From a virus (taxonomy: Duplodnaviria > Caudoviricetes): DNA of 64,000 nucleotides. Positions within the stretch are counted from its first letter, which is position 1. Every line of letters starts with the position of its first letter. This document shows, in pieces, positions 2,572 to 56,931 of the stretch. Under the pieces are notes generated by a model, which worked only from the letters and a program-made list of their open reading frames with translations, was not told the DNA's origin and did no database searches. The stretch spans positions 32,001-96,000 of IMG/VR virus record IMGVR_UViG_3300023174_000047; one strand, written 5' to 3'. The position numbers and the translations under genes are program-made.

Positions 2572-4041
2572 ATGAATAGAATCAAACCTACACAGGCTTA
2601 TATCGATCAAAATCGCGCTAAGGTGCTTCTTGAAAAGTGGGGTCCAGTATTGGATTACACCTCCAAGAACGTCGCAGCCATCGAAAACGAACATACTCGT
2701 TTAAACACCGCAATGCTCTTGGAAAACCAAGAAGCATGGTGCTTAAGCGAAGCAAACGTTGGCGGTCAAGGCGGTTCTTTTGGTAGTGCAGCGGGTGGTC
2801 AATACTCCCCTCCTACCGGAATTTCCTCTTCCGACAGCTATGCTACAAATGATGCTCGTCTTCCAAAGATTTTGATTCCGATGATTCGTCGTACGTTCCC
2901 TGAACTTATCAGTAACGAGATATGCGGTGTGCAGCCAATGAGCGGCCCTGTCGGACTCGCCTTTGCTCTTCGCTACAAGTATGGTACAAACACACTTGGT
3001 AACGCAAACAGCATTGACGGATCTACACAAGGTACATCAGGCACGCATAGTCAGCAAGGAGTTAGTTACGGAACCGGCAACGGACAAAATGAAATGGGAT
3101 ACCAGTTCATTGACACCCGCTTCACCGGTACTTCCGCAACTGTACTCTCCGGTAATAGCTACTGGACTTTCGCTAACCAAGACCGTGGTGTCGCAGAGAT
3201 TTTGAAGAATTTCGAAATCAATAGCAACATCCCAACAGTCGAAGTTAGTTTTGAAAAGACAGCAGTTGAAGCCGGTACTCGCCGTCTGGGCGCTCGTTGG
3301 TCTGTTGAGTTGGAACAGGATCTGAAGAACATGAACGGTATCGATATTGATGCTGAGATTACAAATGCTATGGCATATGAAATCCAGGCTGAAATCGACC
3401 GTGAAATGATTATCCGAATGGTCCAAACCGCACTCAGTCAGCCATACGGCGTTGGCTATTCTGTCTGGAGCCCAGCTTCAGCAGATGGTCGCTGGATGGT
3501 AGAGCGCAACCGTGACTTCTACCAGAGACTCATCATCGAAGCAAATCGCATCGCAGTACGTAATCGTCGCGGTTCGGCTAATTTCATCGTTGCAACACCT
3601 CGTGTGTGTGCAATCCTTGAAATGCTTCCTGAGTTTCAGTGGGCACCTGTCCAAGGCAACGTTAACACCCAGGCAACTGGGGTTGCTAAGGTAGGAAACC
3701 TTGGTGGAAGATTCAATGTGTACCGCGACACTCGTACTGAAGTGCAAAACAGCAATGTCTATGGTGACAACGGTTATACCGGTCAAACCGCAGGCGTTGA
3801 GTATGCACTACTTGGTTACAAAGGCAGCGAATTTTATGACACTGGCATTATCTATTGTCCGTACATTCCTGTTATGATACAACGTACCATTGGTCCAAAC
3901 GACTTCGCTCCACGTGTAGGCTTGCTTACACGTTATGGCGTTGTTGATAACATCTTCGGTGCTAATCTGTACTATCACGTAATCATTGTTCAGGGTCTTG
4001 GTGTGGCATTCACACCTGCGACACAGACAGTCTACTTCTAA
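2572..4041 (+). CDS. gp23: Major capsid protein
   Basis: LLEKWGPVL, ICGVQPMSGPVGLAFALR, LGARWSVELEQDLK, EIQAEIDRE, YCPYIP and GLLTRYG hallmark motifs. Confidence 0.98.
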   Translation: MNRIKPTQAYIDQNRAKVLLEKWGPVLDYTSKNVAAIENEHTRLNTAMLLENQEAWCLSEANVGGQGGSFGSAAGGQYSPPTGISSSDSYATNDARLPKILIPMIRRTFPELISNEICGVQPMSGPVGLAFALRYKYGTNTLGNANSIDGSTQGTSGTHSQQGVSYGTGNGQNEMGYQFIDTRFTGTSATVLSGNSYWTFANQDRGVAEILKNFEINSNIPTVEVSFEKTAVEAGTRRLGARWSVELEQDLKNMNGIDIDAEITNAMAYEIQAEIDREMIIRMVQTALSQPYGVGYSVWSPASADGRWMVERNRDFYQRLIIEANRIAVRNRRGSANFIVATPRVCAILEMLPEFQWAPVQGNVNTQATGVAKVGNLGGRFNVYRDTRTEVQNSNVYGDNGYTGQTAGVEYALLGYKGSEFYDTGIIYCPYIPVMIQRTIGPNDFAPRVGLLTRYGVVDNIFGANLYYHVIIVQGLGVAFTPATQTVYF

Positions 4042-5972: not shown

Positions 5973-6254
5973 ATGATTAGTCAGTTTAACATTATATTTG
6001 AACAGCTGTTACTCGAAGCGAAAAAAGGTGTACGCTGCACCAAGGTAACAGGGCAACAATCATCAACTAGAGATGATAAAAAATACATGCGCTGTGCGCG
6101 TGTTGGTGGTAAGCTTAAGCGCATTCATTATGGTGATCCCAATCTGAGAATCAAAAAATCTAATCCTAAGAAGCGTAAGTCATTTAGAGCGCGTCACAAA
6201 TGTTCAAGTGCTAAGCCAGGAACTGCAAGATATTTTTCATGTAAGAATTGGTAA
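5973..6254 (+). CDS. Small basic conserved phage protein (KSFRARHKC motif)
   Basis: ATG 5973 follows TATAAATA at 5960-5967. GDPNLRIKKSNPKKRKSFRARHKC...ARYFSCKNW is a pattern I recognise from large-phage hypothetical proteins. Confidence 0.75.
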   Translation: MISQFNIIFEQLLLEAKKGVRCTKVTGQQSSTRDDKKYMRCARVGGKLKRIHYGDPNLRIKKSNPKKRKSFRARHKCSSAKPGTARYFSCKNW

Positions 6255-6292
6255 AAAATAAACCCGCCTTATGGTGGGTTTATTTTTTTTTT
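6253..6292. terminator. Bidirectional intrinsic terminator
   Basis: aaaaaataaacccgcc-ttat-ggtgggtttattttttt with A/T tracts on both sides, between convergent genes. Confidence 0.85.
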
Positions 6293-6309
6293 GATTGACT
6301 ATTTGATGC

Positions 6310-6696
6310 TTAATGCATTTCAAGTGCCCACAATCTACGTGTGTTGGGGCTTATATTATCCGTATTTGCTGCTGATACATTCTGAACTTTGGATACTCCA
6401 AATGCAGTTGTTACAGTCACGAGGGAACTTGTACGATCAGGGAATTCGAGAGCAATGGTTTGACCTTGGAAACTCCTGTTTACAGTAATGCTCAAGCCAT
6501 ATGCTGCAGAAAGTGTCACCTTGGTGGTATCTGCATTGGTGAAATTACTATTGTATAAAACCGCTACAACTCGTTTACCATTAATGGTTCCAAAAGAATT
6601 TACGACAATGGTACCATTAGATGCAGAAAGGGTTGCATTAAGTGGCTGTGGATTATATGCAGTTGCATCGCGGAGTTCAAAATTAAAAGCTGGCAT
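6310..6696 (-). CDS. Hypothetical protein, beta-rich, likely virion-associated
   Basis: 128 aa ORF with ATAAATA upstream. Confidence 0.6.
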   Translation of the reverse strand: MPAFNFELRDATAYNPQPLNATLSASNGTIVVNSFGTINGKRVVAVLYNSNFTNADTTKVTLSAAYGLSITVNRSFQGQTIALEFPDRTSSLVTVTTAFGVSKVQNVSAANTDNISPNTRRLWALEMH

Positions 6697-6781
6697 ACAT
6701 TTATTTATTCGCTATGCAAGGCATTTATGCATTGTTGCTGTTGCAGGTTAATTCTTTTTAATATTATTTTCAGTGCACTCA

Positions 6782-7099
6782 TTAACGCATGAATGTCTTC
6801 ATGTTTTCTACAATCAAACCATCCATATACCGAAAAAACGATTCAGGTGTGAAGCTATGAGCTTGCTTTTTTAAATCAGCTATATATTTTAAGTGCTGCA
6901 CAAAATTCGCATCATTTTCTTTGTTGCGATTTTCTGCTGATTCATAAGCTTCAGATTCTTCGTCTGCATCAAATGTTGCAACTATATAATCTTTTTTTGT
7001 AGAATCATAGACAGCAAAGCGGCCATCATAGGTTCGCTTTACTTTATAATTCTTATCTCCTAGTCTATATGGTTCAATTCTTTTGTAAGATTTAATCAT
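6782..7099 (-). CDS. Hypothetical protein
   Basis: Likely start MIKSYKRIE at 7099, overlapping the stop of the upstream small ORF. Confidence 0.6.
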   Translation of the reverse strand: MIKSYKRIEPYRLGDKNYKVKRTYDGRFAVYDSTKKDYIVATFDADEESEAYESAENRNKENDANFVQHLKYIADLKKQAHSFTPESFFRYMDGLIVENMKTFMR

Positions 7100-7263
7100 T
7101 TTAATTTGCCTCCACGTTTGCGACATTTTGCAATGTATCCACTTGCATATGCACTTGGAAATACTTTGTATTTGCTCTTGGCTTTGCGATAACATGCATC
7201 ATGCTTGGGCTTTTTAACTTTTTCTTCAAGCACGTATGTAAATATTTCAGCAAAGATTTCCAT
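7096..7263 (-). CDS. Small basic conserved phage protein (DACY..K..Y.VFPSAYASG motif)
   Basis: Hand-translated MEIFAEIFTYVLEEKVKKPKHDACYRKAKSKYKVFPSAYASGYIAKCRKRGGKLK. Not in the ORF track. Confidence 0.75.
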   Translation of the reverse strand: MEIFAEIFTYVLEEKVKKPKHDACYRKAKSKYKVFPSAYASGYIAKCRKRGGKLK

Positions 7264-7265
7264 GA

Positions 7266-7721
7266 TTATTCACAGTCTTGATTTGCTTTGCATTCTTTAC
7301 ACTCACTGCAATCGCAGCCTTCTTCAGCATATTTGCAATGCATGTGCTCTTCTGCTTCTTCTTTTCCGTGAATAGCTTTGTTTATTTTTTTGCGACGATT
7401 TTTGAGAAATTCATCTGTTTTATCTTTTTTGCCATCATTATTGATATCATCATCCTCTTCACCAACATCATCAAGTTTTTCAAGATATAATGACATCACA
7501 TGTTGATATGCAAAATCAAAAACATTTCCTGGCTGTGCACGTTCAACTAAAGCATTTAATTCATTGGCAAATGCAGATTCTTTTTTTAGAAATTTCTTGA
7601 TTTCTTTTTTGGGCATTTTTTTAGCTACTTTGGCTGCAGCACCTTTTGCTTTGCCTTTGCTTTTTTTAGCACCCATAACGGCACCGAAGAATTTGCGTTG
7701 TTTTTCTGATTTTGCTGGCAT
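7266..7721 (-). CDS. Hypothetical late protein with basic MPAKSEKQRKFFG N-terminus and a DINNDG acidic loop
   Basis: 151 aa ORF; CATAAATA upstream; dockerin/EF-hand-like DINNDGKKDKTD; Cys-rich tail. Confidence 0.7.
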   Translation of the reverse strand: MPAKSEKQRKFFGAVMGAKKSKGKAKGAAAKVAKKMPKKEIKKFLKKESAFANELNALVERAQPGNVFDFAYQHVMSLYLEKLDDVGEEDDDINNDGKKDKTDEFLKNRRKKINKAIHGKEEAEEHMHCKYAEEGCDCSECKECKANQDCE

Positions 7722-31836: not shown

Positions 31837-32434
31837 AAATTATTATAATGTTGCGACCCAACCCTGTATCTTCAAATACATAGTTTGGATTTATTGCTTT
31901 GATTGCATTTTCAAATTCTCTATGAGTCGGCCAACCAAGCCCACCAATATCAACACAATCATCAACAATGATTACATGGTCATTTCTTTTTGAGCATTCT
32001 CGAATTGCGTTAAATTCACTAATTACGGGCGAGTAATTAGGTGTATGTGCATCAAGTAGCATAACAAACTGTTCATCACTATTTTTTGTTAAAAAATCTC
32101 TGAGAAACATTGTTGAACTAGCATTATAAAAATCAATGTTGCTGAATTGCTGTTTTATGCTCTTATATTTTTCAAGTAGATTAATAGAGGTGTAGCTGTT
32201 GCCTGTAATGTATTGCTCAACTGTTGATACTCTATTAAAATGTTCAGCAAAGATTATTGCTGTATCACCTTCAAAAGTACCAAGCTCAATTGCACTTGCA
32301 ATATTTTCTAATGCAATTTTATTTCTATAATTGTATAGAACCTGCGTAAACACATTAGGTACATCTGTTACACCTGGCTTGCCAGCTACATTTGACCATC
32401 TTACATCATTTTGTTCGTATTGTTTGAATTTCAT
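31814..32434 (-). CDS. Class I SAM methyltransferase-like protein
   Basis: IELGTFEGDT, LLDAH and IIVDD. Confidence 0.75.
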   Translation of the reverse strand: MKFKQYEQNDVRWSNVAGKPGVTDVPNVFTQVLYNYRNKIALENIASAIELGTFEGDTAIIFAEHFNRVSTVEQYITGNSYTSINLLEKYKSIKQQFSNIDFYNASSTMFLRDFLTKNSDEQFVMLLDAHTPNYSPVISEFNAIRECSKRNDHVIIVDDCVDIGGLGWPTHREFENAIKAINPNYVFEDTGLGRNIIIIYEPTRIS

Positions 32435-53621: not shown

Positions 53622-55118
53622 ATGATTGGCTATAGAAATGCAGTTTATATTCCACAAGAAGAGTGTGTGCGGGTGTATTCATGGGATGAAAATGGTGAGC
53701 GTGTATCTTATGATTCACATTATACTCCCTACGTAATGATTGAAGATGCTAACGGAAAAGATATTAGCATCTTCAATACCAAGCTACGCACGCGTAAATT
53801 TAAATCACAGTTTGATCGCAATAAATTTATTAAAGACTGTGGCACCAAGAGGCTATTTGAAAACCTCAATCCTGTTCAACAGTTTCTTGTTGATGCATTT
53901 TGGAAACATAATAACGATAGCGATTTTGGAAAATTTCCTGTGCGTGTTGCATTCATAGACATTGAAGTATTTTCACCACTTTCGTTTCCCACAGCAGAAC
54001 AAGCAGGACATCCCATCAACATAATTACAATTCATGATTCATTAACGAATAAACTTTATTCATGGGGCACTAAAGAATATAAGCACAACAGAGATGATTT
54101 AGTGTATAATTTTTGTAAAACAGAAAGACAGCTGCTACTCGAGTTTCTTGAGTTTTTTGAAACAATGCAAGCAGATTTACTGACAGGATGGAACAGTGCT
54201 GGCTTTGACGTTCCATACATCATCAATAGAATTAACAACACCATTGGTGAAGAGCATTCACAACGACTGTCTCCTGTGCGAAGAGTTTATAACAGAGTTC
54301 TCAACTCTGGTATGTTTGGTAGACAGCAGATAAGATGGTACATTGACGGACTATCCTGTGTAGATTACATTGATATTTACAAGCGATTTAGCTTTGTGAA
54401 TAGAGAGAGTTATAAGCTGGATCACATTGCTGAACTGGAGTTAGGTGAGAAAAAGATTGATTATGGCAATACAAATCTTGCTAGTCTTTCAATTGAAGAT
54501 TGGCAGTTGTTTGTTGACTACAACTTACAAGACGTAATGCTTCTTGTTAAAATGGATTTGAAACTGCAGTACATTGCTTTGCTTCGAATGCTTGCATACA
54601 TGGGACTAACCACCATAGAGAATGCAATGAGTACGCTATCAACAATCTCCGGTACAGCTGCTATTAGAGCTCGTCAAAAAGGTAAATATCTACCAACGTT
54701 TATTCGCGGAGATGATGATAGTAAAAATCCTGGAGCTTTTGTTGCAGAGCCGCTTGAGGGATTTCAGGCTAGTGTTGTTTCGTTTGATGCTAACTCTCTA
54801 TATCCTAATATTATGATTAGCCTCAATATGTCACCGGAAACAAAAGTAGGCCGAATCATAGAGAGTGAAGATAGTGACATTACAATTCAGCACATTAATG
54901 GATCAATACATAAGCTTGATGCAGTTAAGTTTGCTAAATTTGTTAAAGATGAAAAAATTGCAATATCAAAAGCCAAAGTGCTTTTCAGCCAAAAGAGCAA
55001 AGGTATTCTACCTGAGATCGTTGACGAATACTACAATGAGCGTGTAGCTGTTCGAAAAGAGATGATGAATCTTAAGAAGGAGTTAAGTCGAATAGAGGAG
55101 CAATTAAAGAATACTTAA
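53622..55118 (+). CDS. gp43: Family B DNA polymerase, N-terminal subunit (exonuclease, motif A, first fingers helix)
   Basis: FIDIEV, TGWNSAGFDVPY, YKLDHIAELELG, YNLQDV, GAFV and SFDANSLYP. Stops after ERVAVRKEMM, before motif B. Confidence 0.95.
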   Translation: MIGYRNAVYIPQEECVRVYSWDENGERVSYDSHYTPYVMIEDANGKDISIFNTKLRTRKFKSQFDRNKFIKDCGTKRLFENLNPVQQFLVDAFWKHNNDSDFGKFPVRVAFIDIEVFSPLSFPTAEQAGHPINIITIHDSLTNKLYSWGTKEYKHNRDDLVYNFCKTERQLLLEFLEFFETMQADLLTGWNSAGFDVPYIINRINNTIGEEHSQRLSPVRRVYNRVLNSGMFGRQQIRWYIDGLSCVDYIDIYKRFSFVNRESYKLDHIAELELGEKKIDYGNTNLASLSIEDWQLFVDYNLQDVMLLVKMDLKLQYIALLRMLAYMGLTTIENAMSTLSTISGTAAIRARQKGKYLPTFIRGDDDSKNPGAFVAEPLEGFQASVVSFDANSLYPNIMISLNMSPETKVGRIIESEDSDITIQHINGSIHKLDAVKFAKFVKDEKIAISKAKVLFSQKSKGILPEIVDEYYNERVAVRKEMMNLKKELSRIEEQLKNT

Positions 55119-55985
55119 AATGTTTTGATATTCTTGCAGTGTAGGTTTGCGCTTTTCAGCACCTCGTATAATAATTTGTTTTTTTACTTTACGCATATTT
55201 ATAGGTGATGTAAAGTCGTTAGATCTTATTCTATCCATAATACCATCTCTTGAAAATCCATTACCTATAGTCCATTCAATTAAAAATTTTGACTGTTCAC
55301 TACCTAGCAGGCAGTCATATATTTTGACAAAATATTGCGGTTTTTTATATGAAGCCTTTGAACATTTTGATTGTGTTAATAATAATTGCTCACTAGAACG
55401 GTTATAGTATGTTTTACACCAAGCATTATAACGTTTATTTTCTTTATTTTGTTTCGCTTCAGGTGATAAATTGTCCCAATATTGTCGAAATTTAGCTTTT
55501 TTAATATACTCACCTTCAACTGTTCTGCCGTGCTTGCTTTTCACACCATGTTTTTTTCGTTGCTCTTGCGTCATATTTGCAAAATATGCTGATAACGTAT
55601 CACTTCTTTTTTGTCTTTGCTCATCTGACAGTTTTATTCCTAATACACCGCCACCGCCATCACAAAAATTATATAGTGGTCCCTGATTTAAATCAGCGCG
55701 CCCAATCAAATTAATTAGCATCATTTCTAATTTAACTGATTCTTCAAATGTTAAATTTTCATATAATGTTAGTATTACAGGTTCTAATTGTTGTTGCTTT
55801 AATTTATTAATTAAGTGAGATAAATGTATATTTGAAGATTTTTTTAAATGTGTATATTTGCGCTTGTGCTGTACACATCCTCTCCCTATATAAACAGGCT
55901 TAAAGTCGAAAGATACATCTCCGTATATAAAATTATCTGAACAGCGTGGATCTAAATATGCATAAACCTCAAATGTTTTGACCAT
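55104..55985 (-). CDS. Free-standing GIY-YIG (LEM3-like) homing endonuclease, antisense to the polymerase
   Basis: VYAYLDPR..VYIGRG, R..H, LE..LI..IGR.D..GPLYN..DGG, NUMOD3-like KLSDEQRQKRS; CATAAATA at 55992-55999. Confidence 0.85.
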   Translation of the reverse strand: MVKTFEVYAYLDPRCSDNFIYGDVSFDFKPVYIGRGCVQHKRKYTHLKKSSNIHLSHLINKLKQQQLEPVILTLYENLTFEESVKLEMMLINLIGRADLNQGPLYNFCDGGGGVLGIKLSDEQRQKRSDTLSAYFANMTQEQRKKHGVKSKHGRTVEGEYIKKAKFRQYWDNLSPEAKQNKENKRYNAWCKTYYNRSSEQLLLTQSKCSKASYKKPQYFVKIYDCLLGSEQSKFLIEWTIGNGFSRDGIMDRIRSNDFTSPINMRKVKKQIIIRGAEKRKPTLQEYQNILSIL

Positions 55986-56045: not shown

Positions 56046-56157
56046 ATGAAAGATAATAAACAACTATTAGAACGAGCTAATTATTTGCGCGATAAAATAG
56101 CGCAATTAAATGCAAAACAATTGTGTATAAAAATTTTTATTAATTCCGTGTACGGGT
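56046..56157 (+). CDS. gp43: DNA polymerase second subunit, exon 1 (motif B)
   Basis: Hand-translated MKDNKQLLERANYLRDKIAQLNAKQLCIKIFINSVYG. Not in the ORF track; TTGATA...TATATT upstream. Confidence 0.9.
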
Positions 56158-56398
56158 TAGCCTTTAGCCCCTTGCTTTAGTGGCAAGAAAATGCCTCTAA
56201 TTGCTGGGAAGTCTCAATGAGATAATCAGCAGCGAAGCGCTAATAATAGCGAACGTTCAACGACTACTGCACAGCAGGTAGGTATAAGCATACCGAAACG
56301 GGGCACACAATTTGTGATGATATAGTCTCATCTATACAGCGATGTATAGCAGCTCAAAAGAGCGCAACAAACGTAGCGATTTTGTTGGAAGAAAAATG
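56158..56398 (+). ncRNA. Group I intron, 241 nt, no internal ORF
   Basis: 5' exon ends in U and intron ends in G; P1 GGGU pairs with GCCC; cores AATTGCTGGGAA (56199), AATCAGCAGC (56224), GTTCAACGACTA (56255) and GATATAGTCT (56319). Removal restores NSVYGYMGNK in frame. Confidence 0.92.
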
Positions 56399-56931
56399 AC
56401 ATGGGCAATAAAAATGCACCGCTAGGTGATGATGACATTGCATCCTCTATTACACTTACAGGGCAATTCATCAACAAATCTTCTCGATCACTTGCAAGGG
56501 AATATGTTGCTAATGTTTTAGGTCATGACAAGTTTGAAGACATTGCTGTTGCCGGGGATACAGACAGTGTGGTTGCAGATGCTGTTATACGCACATCCTG
56601 CGGCAATTTTACAATGGAAGAGTTATATGAATTATGTGAAGAAAGGGGCGGAACTACAAGTATTTCTAAAACCGGTCATGAGTTTCTAACCCCTTCATTT
56701 GACATTACAACCAATTGCGTCGATATGGATGACTGTACTATGCAGAATGCTAAGATTAGCAAGATAAGTAAAAGAAAGGTAAAGAAAGAGATATACAGAT
56801 TGAGAGCTGATAACGGCAAATACATTGATGTAACTAAAGATCATAGTTGTATTGTCATGAGGAACGGTAAACTTATAAGTGTCAAGCCTGTAGACATCAT
56901 TAAAACTGATATGCTGGTGATACAAAAATAA
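56399..56931 (+). CDS. gp43: DNA polymerase second subunit, exon 2: motif C GDTD followed by the N-half of a split intein
   Basis: SITLTGQ...AGDTD, then SVVADAVIRT (block A, from 56566) and VTKDHSCIV (block B TxxH); ends at TAA after 121 intein residues. Confidence 0.92.

Follow-up and report, generated by a model that had tools for sequence, protein, structure and literature searches.

Can a short interval inside a phage's gene for DNA polymerase be a working group I intron, and how could an intron that encodes no nuclease move between genomes? The question is raised by a stretch of 64,000 nucleotides (nt), hereafter the window, which covers positions 32,001 to 96,000 of the IMG/VR virus record IMGVR_UViG_3300023174_000047. 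The record is 203.8 kb long, is estimated to be 96% complete, and belongs to a freshwater T4-like phage. Its polymerase has only about 30% identity to the polymerases of cultured T4-like phages. The gene for the phage's family B DNA polymerase (PolB) is divided into gene 43A and gene 43B. The split between them is filled by a putative free-standing homing endonuclease gene of the GIY-YIG type on the opposite strand, and 43B is interrupted within motif B (Table 1). Taken as a whole, the locus is best explained by a functional intron of IA2 type, located in motif B of 43B, which contains no open reading frame (ORF) and is co-mobile with the GIY-YIG gene; this reading is given a probability of roughly 0.85. 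What is shown directly is that the intron is there, where it is spliced, how it is structured, and that it occurs together with the nuclease gene.

The Rfam model RF00028 matches positions 56081-56349 with 84.9 bits (E 3.5e-20), the gathering score being 50, and so the group I covariance-model check called for by the first-pass annotation of this DNA comes out clearly positive. RF00028 is the sole Rfam family found across the window, and this is the single group I match in the entire virus record. The boundaries are not given by the Rfam alignment, which misplaces P1 onto a hairpin of the upstream exon and ends at P9; the true 3′ end lies beyond two more hairpins, P9.1 and P9.2. The 5′ splice site follows codon position 1, after U56157. 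The 3′ exon must be in phase with 56399 and must follow a G. G56398 alone qualifies, since it is the only frame-restoring G among the last 22 nt of the intron, the open stretch that reaches back to the in-frame stop at 56374. The correct interval is 56158-56398, and the interval first proposed, 56151-56403, was 5-7 nt too wide.

The joining of T56157 to A56399 gives KQLCIKIFINSVYG-Y-MGNKNAPLGDDDIA. The junction itself, TAC GGG T / AC ATG GGC restoring NSVYG-Y-MGNK, had been predicted exactly: the spliced peptide is identical at 29 of 29 positions, without gaps, to the uninterrupted polymerases of the two closest relatives, designated L003 and L020. It is collinear with all members of a comparison set of 18 related polymerase loci fetched from IMG/VR. 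A group I intron was found in none of these 18 loci, and all of them are continuous across the insertion point. The coding strand of the intron has no ORF of 30 amino acids (aa) or longer, which agrees with the earlier statement that the intron lacks an endonuclease of its own, and without splicing the reading frame hits a stop 8 codons into the intron. Exon 1 has the 37 codons that had been counted before, plus the first base of the Tyr codon, and its start codon and length are kept in three further intron-bearing contigs (L220, L221, and L223). The segment 56158-56398 is very probably a functional group I intron spliced at 56157/56399. The record contains one PolB locus; because the phage has only this PolB, splicing would be required for its replication.

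The structure of the intron was examined with a covariance model (R1) made from four sequences, those of the window and of its three orthologs. R1 was searched against about 1.7 Mb of IMG/VR loci sharing the intron core, and its 27 best matches were then placed in an alignment fitted to the model. The core scan of the collection used a gap of 46-62 nt, the window's own spacing being 52 nt. In the 27-sequence alignment, 98.1% of cells are paired, a value somewhat inflated by the fitting to the model, yet the contrast to the 36-44% obtained with the partners slid by 1-3 columns is large. Two-sided changes are observed at 55 of the 64 pairs, and every helix from P1 to P9.2 is supported. The minimum free energy fold (z -2.9) alone yields P1, P2, P3, P5, P6a, P7.1, P7.2, P8, P9, P9.1, and P9.2.

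P1 is kept in all orthologs, its six pairs all covary across the 27 family members, and its splice-site pair is U.G in 17 of 24 family sequences. This U-G pair, the GACTA/TAGTC pairing of P7, and the terminal G had been recognized by the first-pass annotation and are all present (Table 1). Among the orthologs, 99% of cells are paired; two-sided changes occur in seven pairs, of which six belong to P9.2. The two strands of P9.2 are entirely different between the window and L220/L221 and are still complementary, with six of seven pairs changed on both sides and the pairing kept; in the family all seven pairs covary. P7 is invariant in the orthologs, and covariation among them neither supports nor opposes it. 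By architecture only, namely the presence of P7.1/P7.2 and P9.1/P9.2, the intron is predicted to belong to subgroup IA2 (T4 td/Twort type). The closest annotated relative, the intron of Aeromonas salmonicida phage 25, was labelled IA2 by its depositors (NC_008208).

The loop of P9.2 has the sequence UAGCGA (window 56372-56380). The motif UARCGA (UAGCGA or UAACGA) is retained in L220, L140, L170, L143, and L228 despite the full turnover of the stem. The conserved loop suggests a tertiary contact; pairing of the loop with P6a was looked for, and none was found.

The start codon of the antisense nuclease gene is located 172 nt from the intron insertion site. The protein has a weak Pfam match to LEM-3_GIY-YIG (E 0.0085, below the cut-off), tblastn matches to phage proteins annotated as Seg-like or intron endonucleases, and an Atlas language-model feature score of 0.95 to LEM-3-like GIY-YIG/NUMOD3 clusters. 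A sequence search against solved structures gave only spurious S100 matches. On the basis of the annotated phage relatives and the Atlas look-alikes, the protein is classed as a GIY-YIG/NUMOD3-type nuclease.

Introns at the identical site were found in three more IMG/VR contigs. L220 was the one locus returned by an IMG/VR search with the 293-aa nuclease protein, and L221 and L223 were found by a 21-nt DNA word from P7.2-P3′. The polA-based locus search had missed all three, and a metagenome scan with a 21-nt P7.2-P3′ word gave no match. L220 has 43A, an antisense ORF at the same position (59% aa identity), a 37-codon exon 1, an RF00028 match, and exon 2, and it has no intein. The ortholog introns score 79.6 and 81.6 bits with RF00028, and the splice junctions of L221 and L223 match that of the window. 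In L221 (4955-5203) and L223 (10449-10697), a remnant of the nuclease gene, consisting of the last 83 codons and the first few, is accompanied by an intact intron. Such a remnant resembles a stage of decay, caught in nature, in the cycle of a homing endonuclease. All four intron-bearing contigs thus carry the nuclease gene or its remnant, while none of the 18 intron-less relatives does, both elements being absent there.

In a maximum-likelihood tree of 43A, the window is grouped with the element-free L003 and L020 (97/97), and L220, L221, and L223 constitute the sister group. Therefore, at least two gain or loss events are required, and each of them hit the nuclease gene and the intron together. 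Near the insertion site, the window shares 20 derived sites with L220 and 10 with L003, versus 134 and 178, respectively, in polA (Fisher p 0.02). Such a local excess would be the appearance expected of a co-conversion tract, and the signal is weak.

Spread of the intron with the help of two flanking nucleases had been suggested in the first-pass annotation. For the GIY-YIG gene the suggestion stands circumstantially, on the occurrence in four of four intron contigs and in 0 of 18 intron-less ones; for the Vsr-like gene downstream it does not. The Vsr-like gene and both intein halves are missing from the intron-bearing L220, L221, and L223, and its ORF is 39% identical to an ORF inside the split intein of phage AS-gz. 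The absence of the gene where the intron occurs without the intein, together with the homolog in the AS-gz intein, rules it out as the partner of the intron. Judged by this distribution and similarity, the Vsr-like nuclease belongs to the split intein.

The proposed mechanism begins with the internal guide UAGCCC, which would pair with GGGU of the exon to form P1 and place a U.G wobble at the cleavage site. An exogenous guanosine bound in P7 would attack after U56157, and the freed exon would attack after the terminal G56398, leaving T|AC joined. Self-splicing in vivo is what we infer from the sequence. Lacking a nuclease, the intron would not home by itself; it would be inherited, and most likely gained and lost, as one unit with the antisense GIY-YIG gene. 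If the GIY-YIG enzyme broke an uninterrupted polymerase allele, repair from the present allele would copy the nuclease gene, exon 1, and the intron together. The balance tips slightly toward such joint gain and loss through gene conversion. Cleavage near the insertion site and not at it, as in trans homing (PMC2790892), is a rather doubtful refinement of this proposal.

The arrangement is already known from Aeromonas phages; the locus described here represents it independently and differs in both the insertion site and the nuclease. In A. salmonicida phage 25 (NC_008208, AY303350), 43A is followed by a GIY-YIG gene and by 43B with an ORF-less IA2 intron, as relayed by PMC2993671 and PMC2988022 from Petrov, Ratnayaka, and Karam (J Mol Biol 2010); the gene in the split is named seg43(25) (PMC2988022), also helc25. 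The order in NC_008208 is 43A (498 aa), a same-strand GIY-YIG gene, and 43B annotated as "split by group IA2 intron". The intron was located at 20440-20094 of the phage 25 locus (L224); it is 347 nt long, scores 64.2 bits with RF00028, and has the junction GCG T^TG GGT, in the Leu codon of NSLYGA-L-GN.

Phage 25 and the window share a T4-like gp43 split at the fingers tip, a 498-aa 43A, a GIY-YIG gene in the split, and, within motif B of 43B, an ORF-less intron that has P7.1/P7.2 and P9.1/P9.2. The intron of phage 25, which has no nuclease gene of its own, was predicted to use the free-standing nuclease for its mobility (PMC2993671). In contrast, the insertion in phage 25 is 3 nt downstream of the window's in the aligned motif, its intron has 347 nt instead of 241 nt, and its nuclease gene is on the polymerase strand and has no detectable similarity to that of the window. 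The polymerases are about 28% identical, as measured against AS-gz. With R1, the phage 25 intron scores only 27.9 bits and that of AS-gz 78.2 bits, compared with 104-163 bits for introns in other genes or PolB lineages. The window intron was considered as an ortholog of 25.g43B, and this was rejected on the 3-nt offset and the low model score.

AS-gz (MF479730) and its relatives Aes144, Aes151, and UP87 have the same order as the window: 43A (498 aa), a short exon 1, a motif B intron, and exon 2. Exon 2 is fused to an N-intein at DTD|S, which is followed by a Vsr-like ORF and by a C-intein fused to polC. Unlike in the window, no nuclease gene is present between 43A and 43B, and the intron occupies the phage 25 site, 3 nt downstream of the window's; the polymerases are about 28% identical. 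The AS-gz intron is unannotated. It was recognized at 3678-3948 of the AS-gz locus (L228) as an ORF-less element of 271 nt with an R1 score of 78 bits, whose removal gives NSLYGA-L-GN. In the GenBank record (L228 3509-3948), a 59-aa "DNA polymerase" coding sequence (CDS) is followed by a CDS that begins from a GTG at 3948.

Collaborative homing was reportedly described by Zeng, Bonocora, and Shub in 2009 and by Bonocora and Shub in the same year, as relayed by PMC2988022 and PMC2790892. A further system for comparison is the nrdB intron of T4, for which MobE brings about trans homing (Wilson and Edgell 2009, PMC2790892). In these systems, as in the window, a nuclease-less or nuclease-defective group I intron is positioned within recombination distance of a free-standing homing endonuclease gene, and an endonuclease break would bring both elements into a naive allele. 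The difference is that cleavage sites and inheritance were measured there, whereas for the window the evidence consists only of co-occurrence, a distribution that is patchy, and a co-conversion signal that is weak.

Among introns located in polymerase genes, R1 gives its best matches to those of L140 (3300021138_000204) and of L159 and L170 (3300022851_000011 and 3300023235_000008), with 154-161 bits. The L159/L170 introns are about 72% identical to the window intron over 222 nt. The introns of the three loci are ORF-less, are 247-251 nt long, have the same helices, and are inserted in motif B of a fingers-split polymerase with an inserted ORF, as in the window. They differ in the site, which is 6 nt upstream (AAT TCG T^TR TAY GG, in the Leu codon of NS-L-YG), in the guide, and in the inserted ORFs, and the polymerases are about 27% identical to the window's. 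In L140 (4337-8740), a 570-aa 43A is followed by a 406-aa HNH-type homing endonuclease (6057-7274; phrog_655 1e-25) and by 43B with a 251-nt ORF-less intron. The logic of the window is repeated there with a different nuclease family and orientation. In L170 (1-3804), and likewise in L159, the fingers-tip split contains an unassigned 118-aa ORF (1440-1793), and the motif B intron is 247 nt long. In these two loci a split intein is present as well, at DTD|S; its halves are separated by only about 100 nt, and no nuclease gene lies there.

The motif B introns occupy three sites within 9 nt: NS-L-YG (L140, L159, and L170), TAC GGG T^AC ATG (the window clade), and GCG T^TG GGT (phage 25 and AS-gz). 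In four lineages, the intron is accompanied by a fingers-tip split holding a different ORF. Only tentatively can motif B of phage family B polymerases, T4-like and other, be proposed as a hot spot where an ORF-less IA2 intron and differing free-standing nucleases came together convergently at least four times. Under this proposal, since nuclease genes are nested within the intron carriers, the intron would confer the immunity that allows a nuclease gene to persist.

Close relatives of the intron were also seen at other motifs. The ligated exons of L192 (4103-4368) read SLNADFDGD, an RNA polymerase beta′-like metal site, and those of L195 (4359-4679) read GPTGVGKT, a Walker A motif.

Several points weigh against a functional intron that is co-mobile with the GIY-YIG gene. 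P7 and several core helices are invariant in the orthologs and draw their support solely from the wider, model-fitted alignment, and no convincing P10, between the 3′ exon and the guide, was seen on reading the sequence and pairs. Only two or three lineages, few and non-independent, stand behind the four contigs that carry the intron. The p value of 0.02 is a weak signal and comes partly from exon bases constrained by the P1 pairing (GGGT vs GGAT). A recent joint transfer was sought through nucleotide identity along the module between the window and L220, and no sign of it was found: the identity is 65% in the nuclease gene, 72% in 43A, 74.5% in exon 1, and 83% in the intron, and the nuclease is more diverged than polA or the intron. 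Finally, with a spacing of 172 nt the nuclease gene and the intron would co-segregate even if they were functionally unrelated.

Strict collaborative homing with immunity is the alternative that survives best, and it is considered possible at odds well below even. The GIY-YIG enzyme would target the coding sequence of motif B and cut at or beside the insertion site, and the intron would split this site and protect its own genome. A conserved sequence for a catalytic motif is a typical target of homing endonucleases (PMC2988022), and the pathway is defined in the literature (PMC2790892). The immunity version predicts that the nuclease never occurs without the intron, and this matches the pattern seen, with few independent cases. 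Wherever an inserted nuclease gene or its remnant was seen, a motif B intron was present too (the window, L220, L221/L223, L140, phage 25, and Aes002), introns without a nuclease gene exist (AS-gz, Aes144, Aes151, and UP87), and at this split and motif a nuclease and an intron are found together in four combinations that are unrelated to one another. However, the nested pattern depends on about four independent cases, and the target could instead be disrupted by the nuclease gene itself, through its insertion at the fingers tip. Seg-type GIY-YIG enzymes, such as SegF and SegG of T4, cut hundreds of bp away from their own genes, and cutting at such a distance makes cleavage elsewhere equally possible.

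Somewhat less likely, the intron is a passive relic: an old, immobile, vertically inherited passenger, kept because its imprecise loss kills the polymerase, with a nuclease gene nearby by coincidence as both elements favour a conserved gene. The intron is intact in L221 and L223 despite the decay of the nuclease gene and is also present in Aeromonas phages without a nuclease gene. Between the window and L220, the module has diverged to an extent similar to the host gene, and the tree is explained by one gain and one loss. This fits poorly with L003 and L020, which have neither element and a cleanly continuous gene, and for which either a single conversion over both or two precise deletions would be needed. 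The local shift of similarity toward L220 around the insertion site and the recurrence of the pairing of nuclease and intron in unrelated lineages also speak against a relic.

It is improbable that the intron was derived, by reverse splicing followed by reverse transcription or recombination, from a relative inserted close by in motif B instead of arriving by nuclease-driven homing. Related introns are indeed found at the three sites within 9 nt, each site after a U and each guide matched to its own exon. The guides nevertheless differ completely, so that a simple shift is insufficient, and nothing in these data points to an RNA-mediated route in phages. This scenario addresses only the origin of the intron and is compatible with co-mobility with the GIY-YIG gene.

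That no splicing occurs at all, 56046-56180 being a separate small ORF and the polymerase piece beginning at the ATG at 56401, can practically be dismissed: an ATG is present 2 nt into exon 2, and the AS-gz annotators entered the corresponding pieces as separate CDSs, but KxxxNSxYG and xGN would then fall on two polypeptides, the 241 nt in between have the score of a complete group I intron and covary, and the junction rebuilds the sequence of the relatives exactly.

The features of the locus are summarized in Table 1. The 43A protein shares 82% identity with the N-terminal region of the polymerases of L003 and L020, which are uninterrupted and 852 aa long. The ORF that starts at the ATG at 56401 extends through DTD into the N-intein. 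43A and the antisense GIY-YIG gene are convergent and overlap by 15 nt at their 3′ ends (55104-55118); the overlap is retained in L220 (4868-4882).

Table 1. Genes, exons, and predicted intron helices of the polymerase locus (positions of the window).
Feature	Positions	Strand	Evidence
Gene 43A, 498-aa N-terminal subunit of the polymerase, with exonuclease domain, motif A, and first helix of the fingers	53622-55118	+	Pfam DNA_pol_B_exo1 2.5e-18, DNA_pol_B 5.9e-13
Putative free-standing GIY-YIG/NUMOD3-type homing endonuclease gene, 293 aa, filling the 43A/43B split	55104-55985	-	see text
Gene 43B exon 1, carrying KIFINSVYG of motif B	56046-56157	+	Pfam DNA_pol_B 4.8e-4; collinear with contiguous polymerases
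ORF-less group I intron, 241 nt, IA2-type architecture	56158-56398	+	RF00028, fold, covariation
P1: exon GGGU and intron UA with internal guide UAGCCC (56165-56170); U56157.G56167 wobble at 5′ splice site	56154-56170	+	written-out pairs
P3 (56192-56197 with 56300-56305), enclosing P4, P5, P6/P6a, P7 5′ strand, P7.1, P7.2	56192-56305	+	helices 98-100% paired, two-sided changes in the 27-sequence alignment
P7 pseudoknot: GACUA 56262-56266 with UAGUC 56323-56327, expected guanosine-binding helix	56262-56327	+	sequence only
P7.1	56267-56277	+	covaries in family alignment
P7.2	56281-56294	+	covaries in family alignment
P8, between the P7 strands	56306-56316	+	two-sided change in orthologs
3′ domain: P9 56332-56349, P9.1 56352-56363, P9.2 56365-56387, then terminal G56398	56332-56398	+	folding, covariation
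Gene 43B exon 2, with the remainder of motif B (Y-MGN), palm motif C as far as DTD, and then the split-intein N-half	56399-56931	+	spliced translation; Pfam Intein_splicing 6.4e-9
Free-standing gene for a Vsr/REase-like nuclease, 332 aa, located between the two halves of the intein	56956-57954	+	Pfam MTES_1575 2e-5; phrog_22677 9e-66
Split-intein C-half fused to C-terminal polymerase part	57947-58909	+	Pfam Intein_splicing 6.8e-5; polC collinear with relatives

Further variation in the splitting of the polymerase was observed among the relatives. In L221 (2808-3833), 43A itself is split between residues 116 and 122, just past the DIE motif of Exo I. This split holds an ORF for a 283-aa HNH-type homing endonuclease (2844-3692; phrog_655 8.7e-33), around which no group I intron signature was found, and the L221 polymerase appears to consist of at least three cistrons. 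In L011 (7001-8835), a relative with 55% identity, the ORF resembling 43A stops after 514 aa, and the next polymerase match follows about 220 nt on, with no nuclease match. By analogy to the arrangement of phage 44RR (PMC2988022), L011 may represent a split without an inserted gene.

For annotation, exon 1 and exon 2 of 43B need to be joined; otherwise, the polymerase is called as fragments without motif B. Such mis-annotation exists in at least one GenBank relative, AS-gz. Knowledge of group I introns themselves is unchanged by the window intron. At this locus, one essential gene carries four selfish insertions: the split filled with a nuclease gene, the intron, the split intein, and the nuclease of the intein. 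The locus is a second, independent test case for the cooperation between a free-standing nuclease and a nuclease-less intron. Together with its relatives, it forms a natural series of both elements, an intron with a decayed nuclease gene, and neither element, which is useful for the study of the gain and loss cycle of homing.

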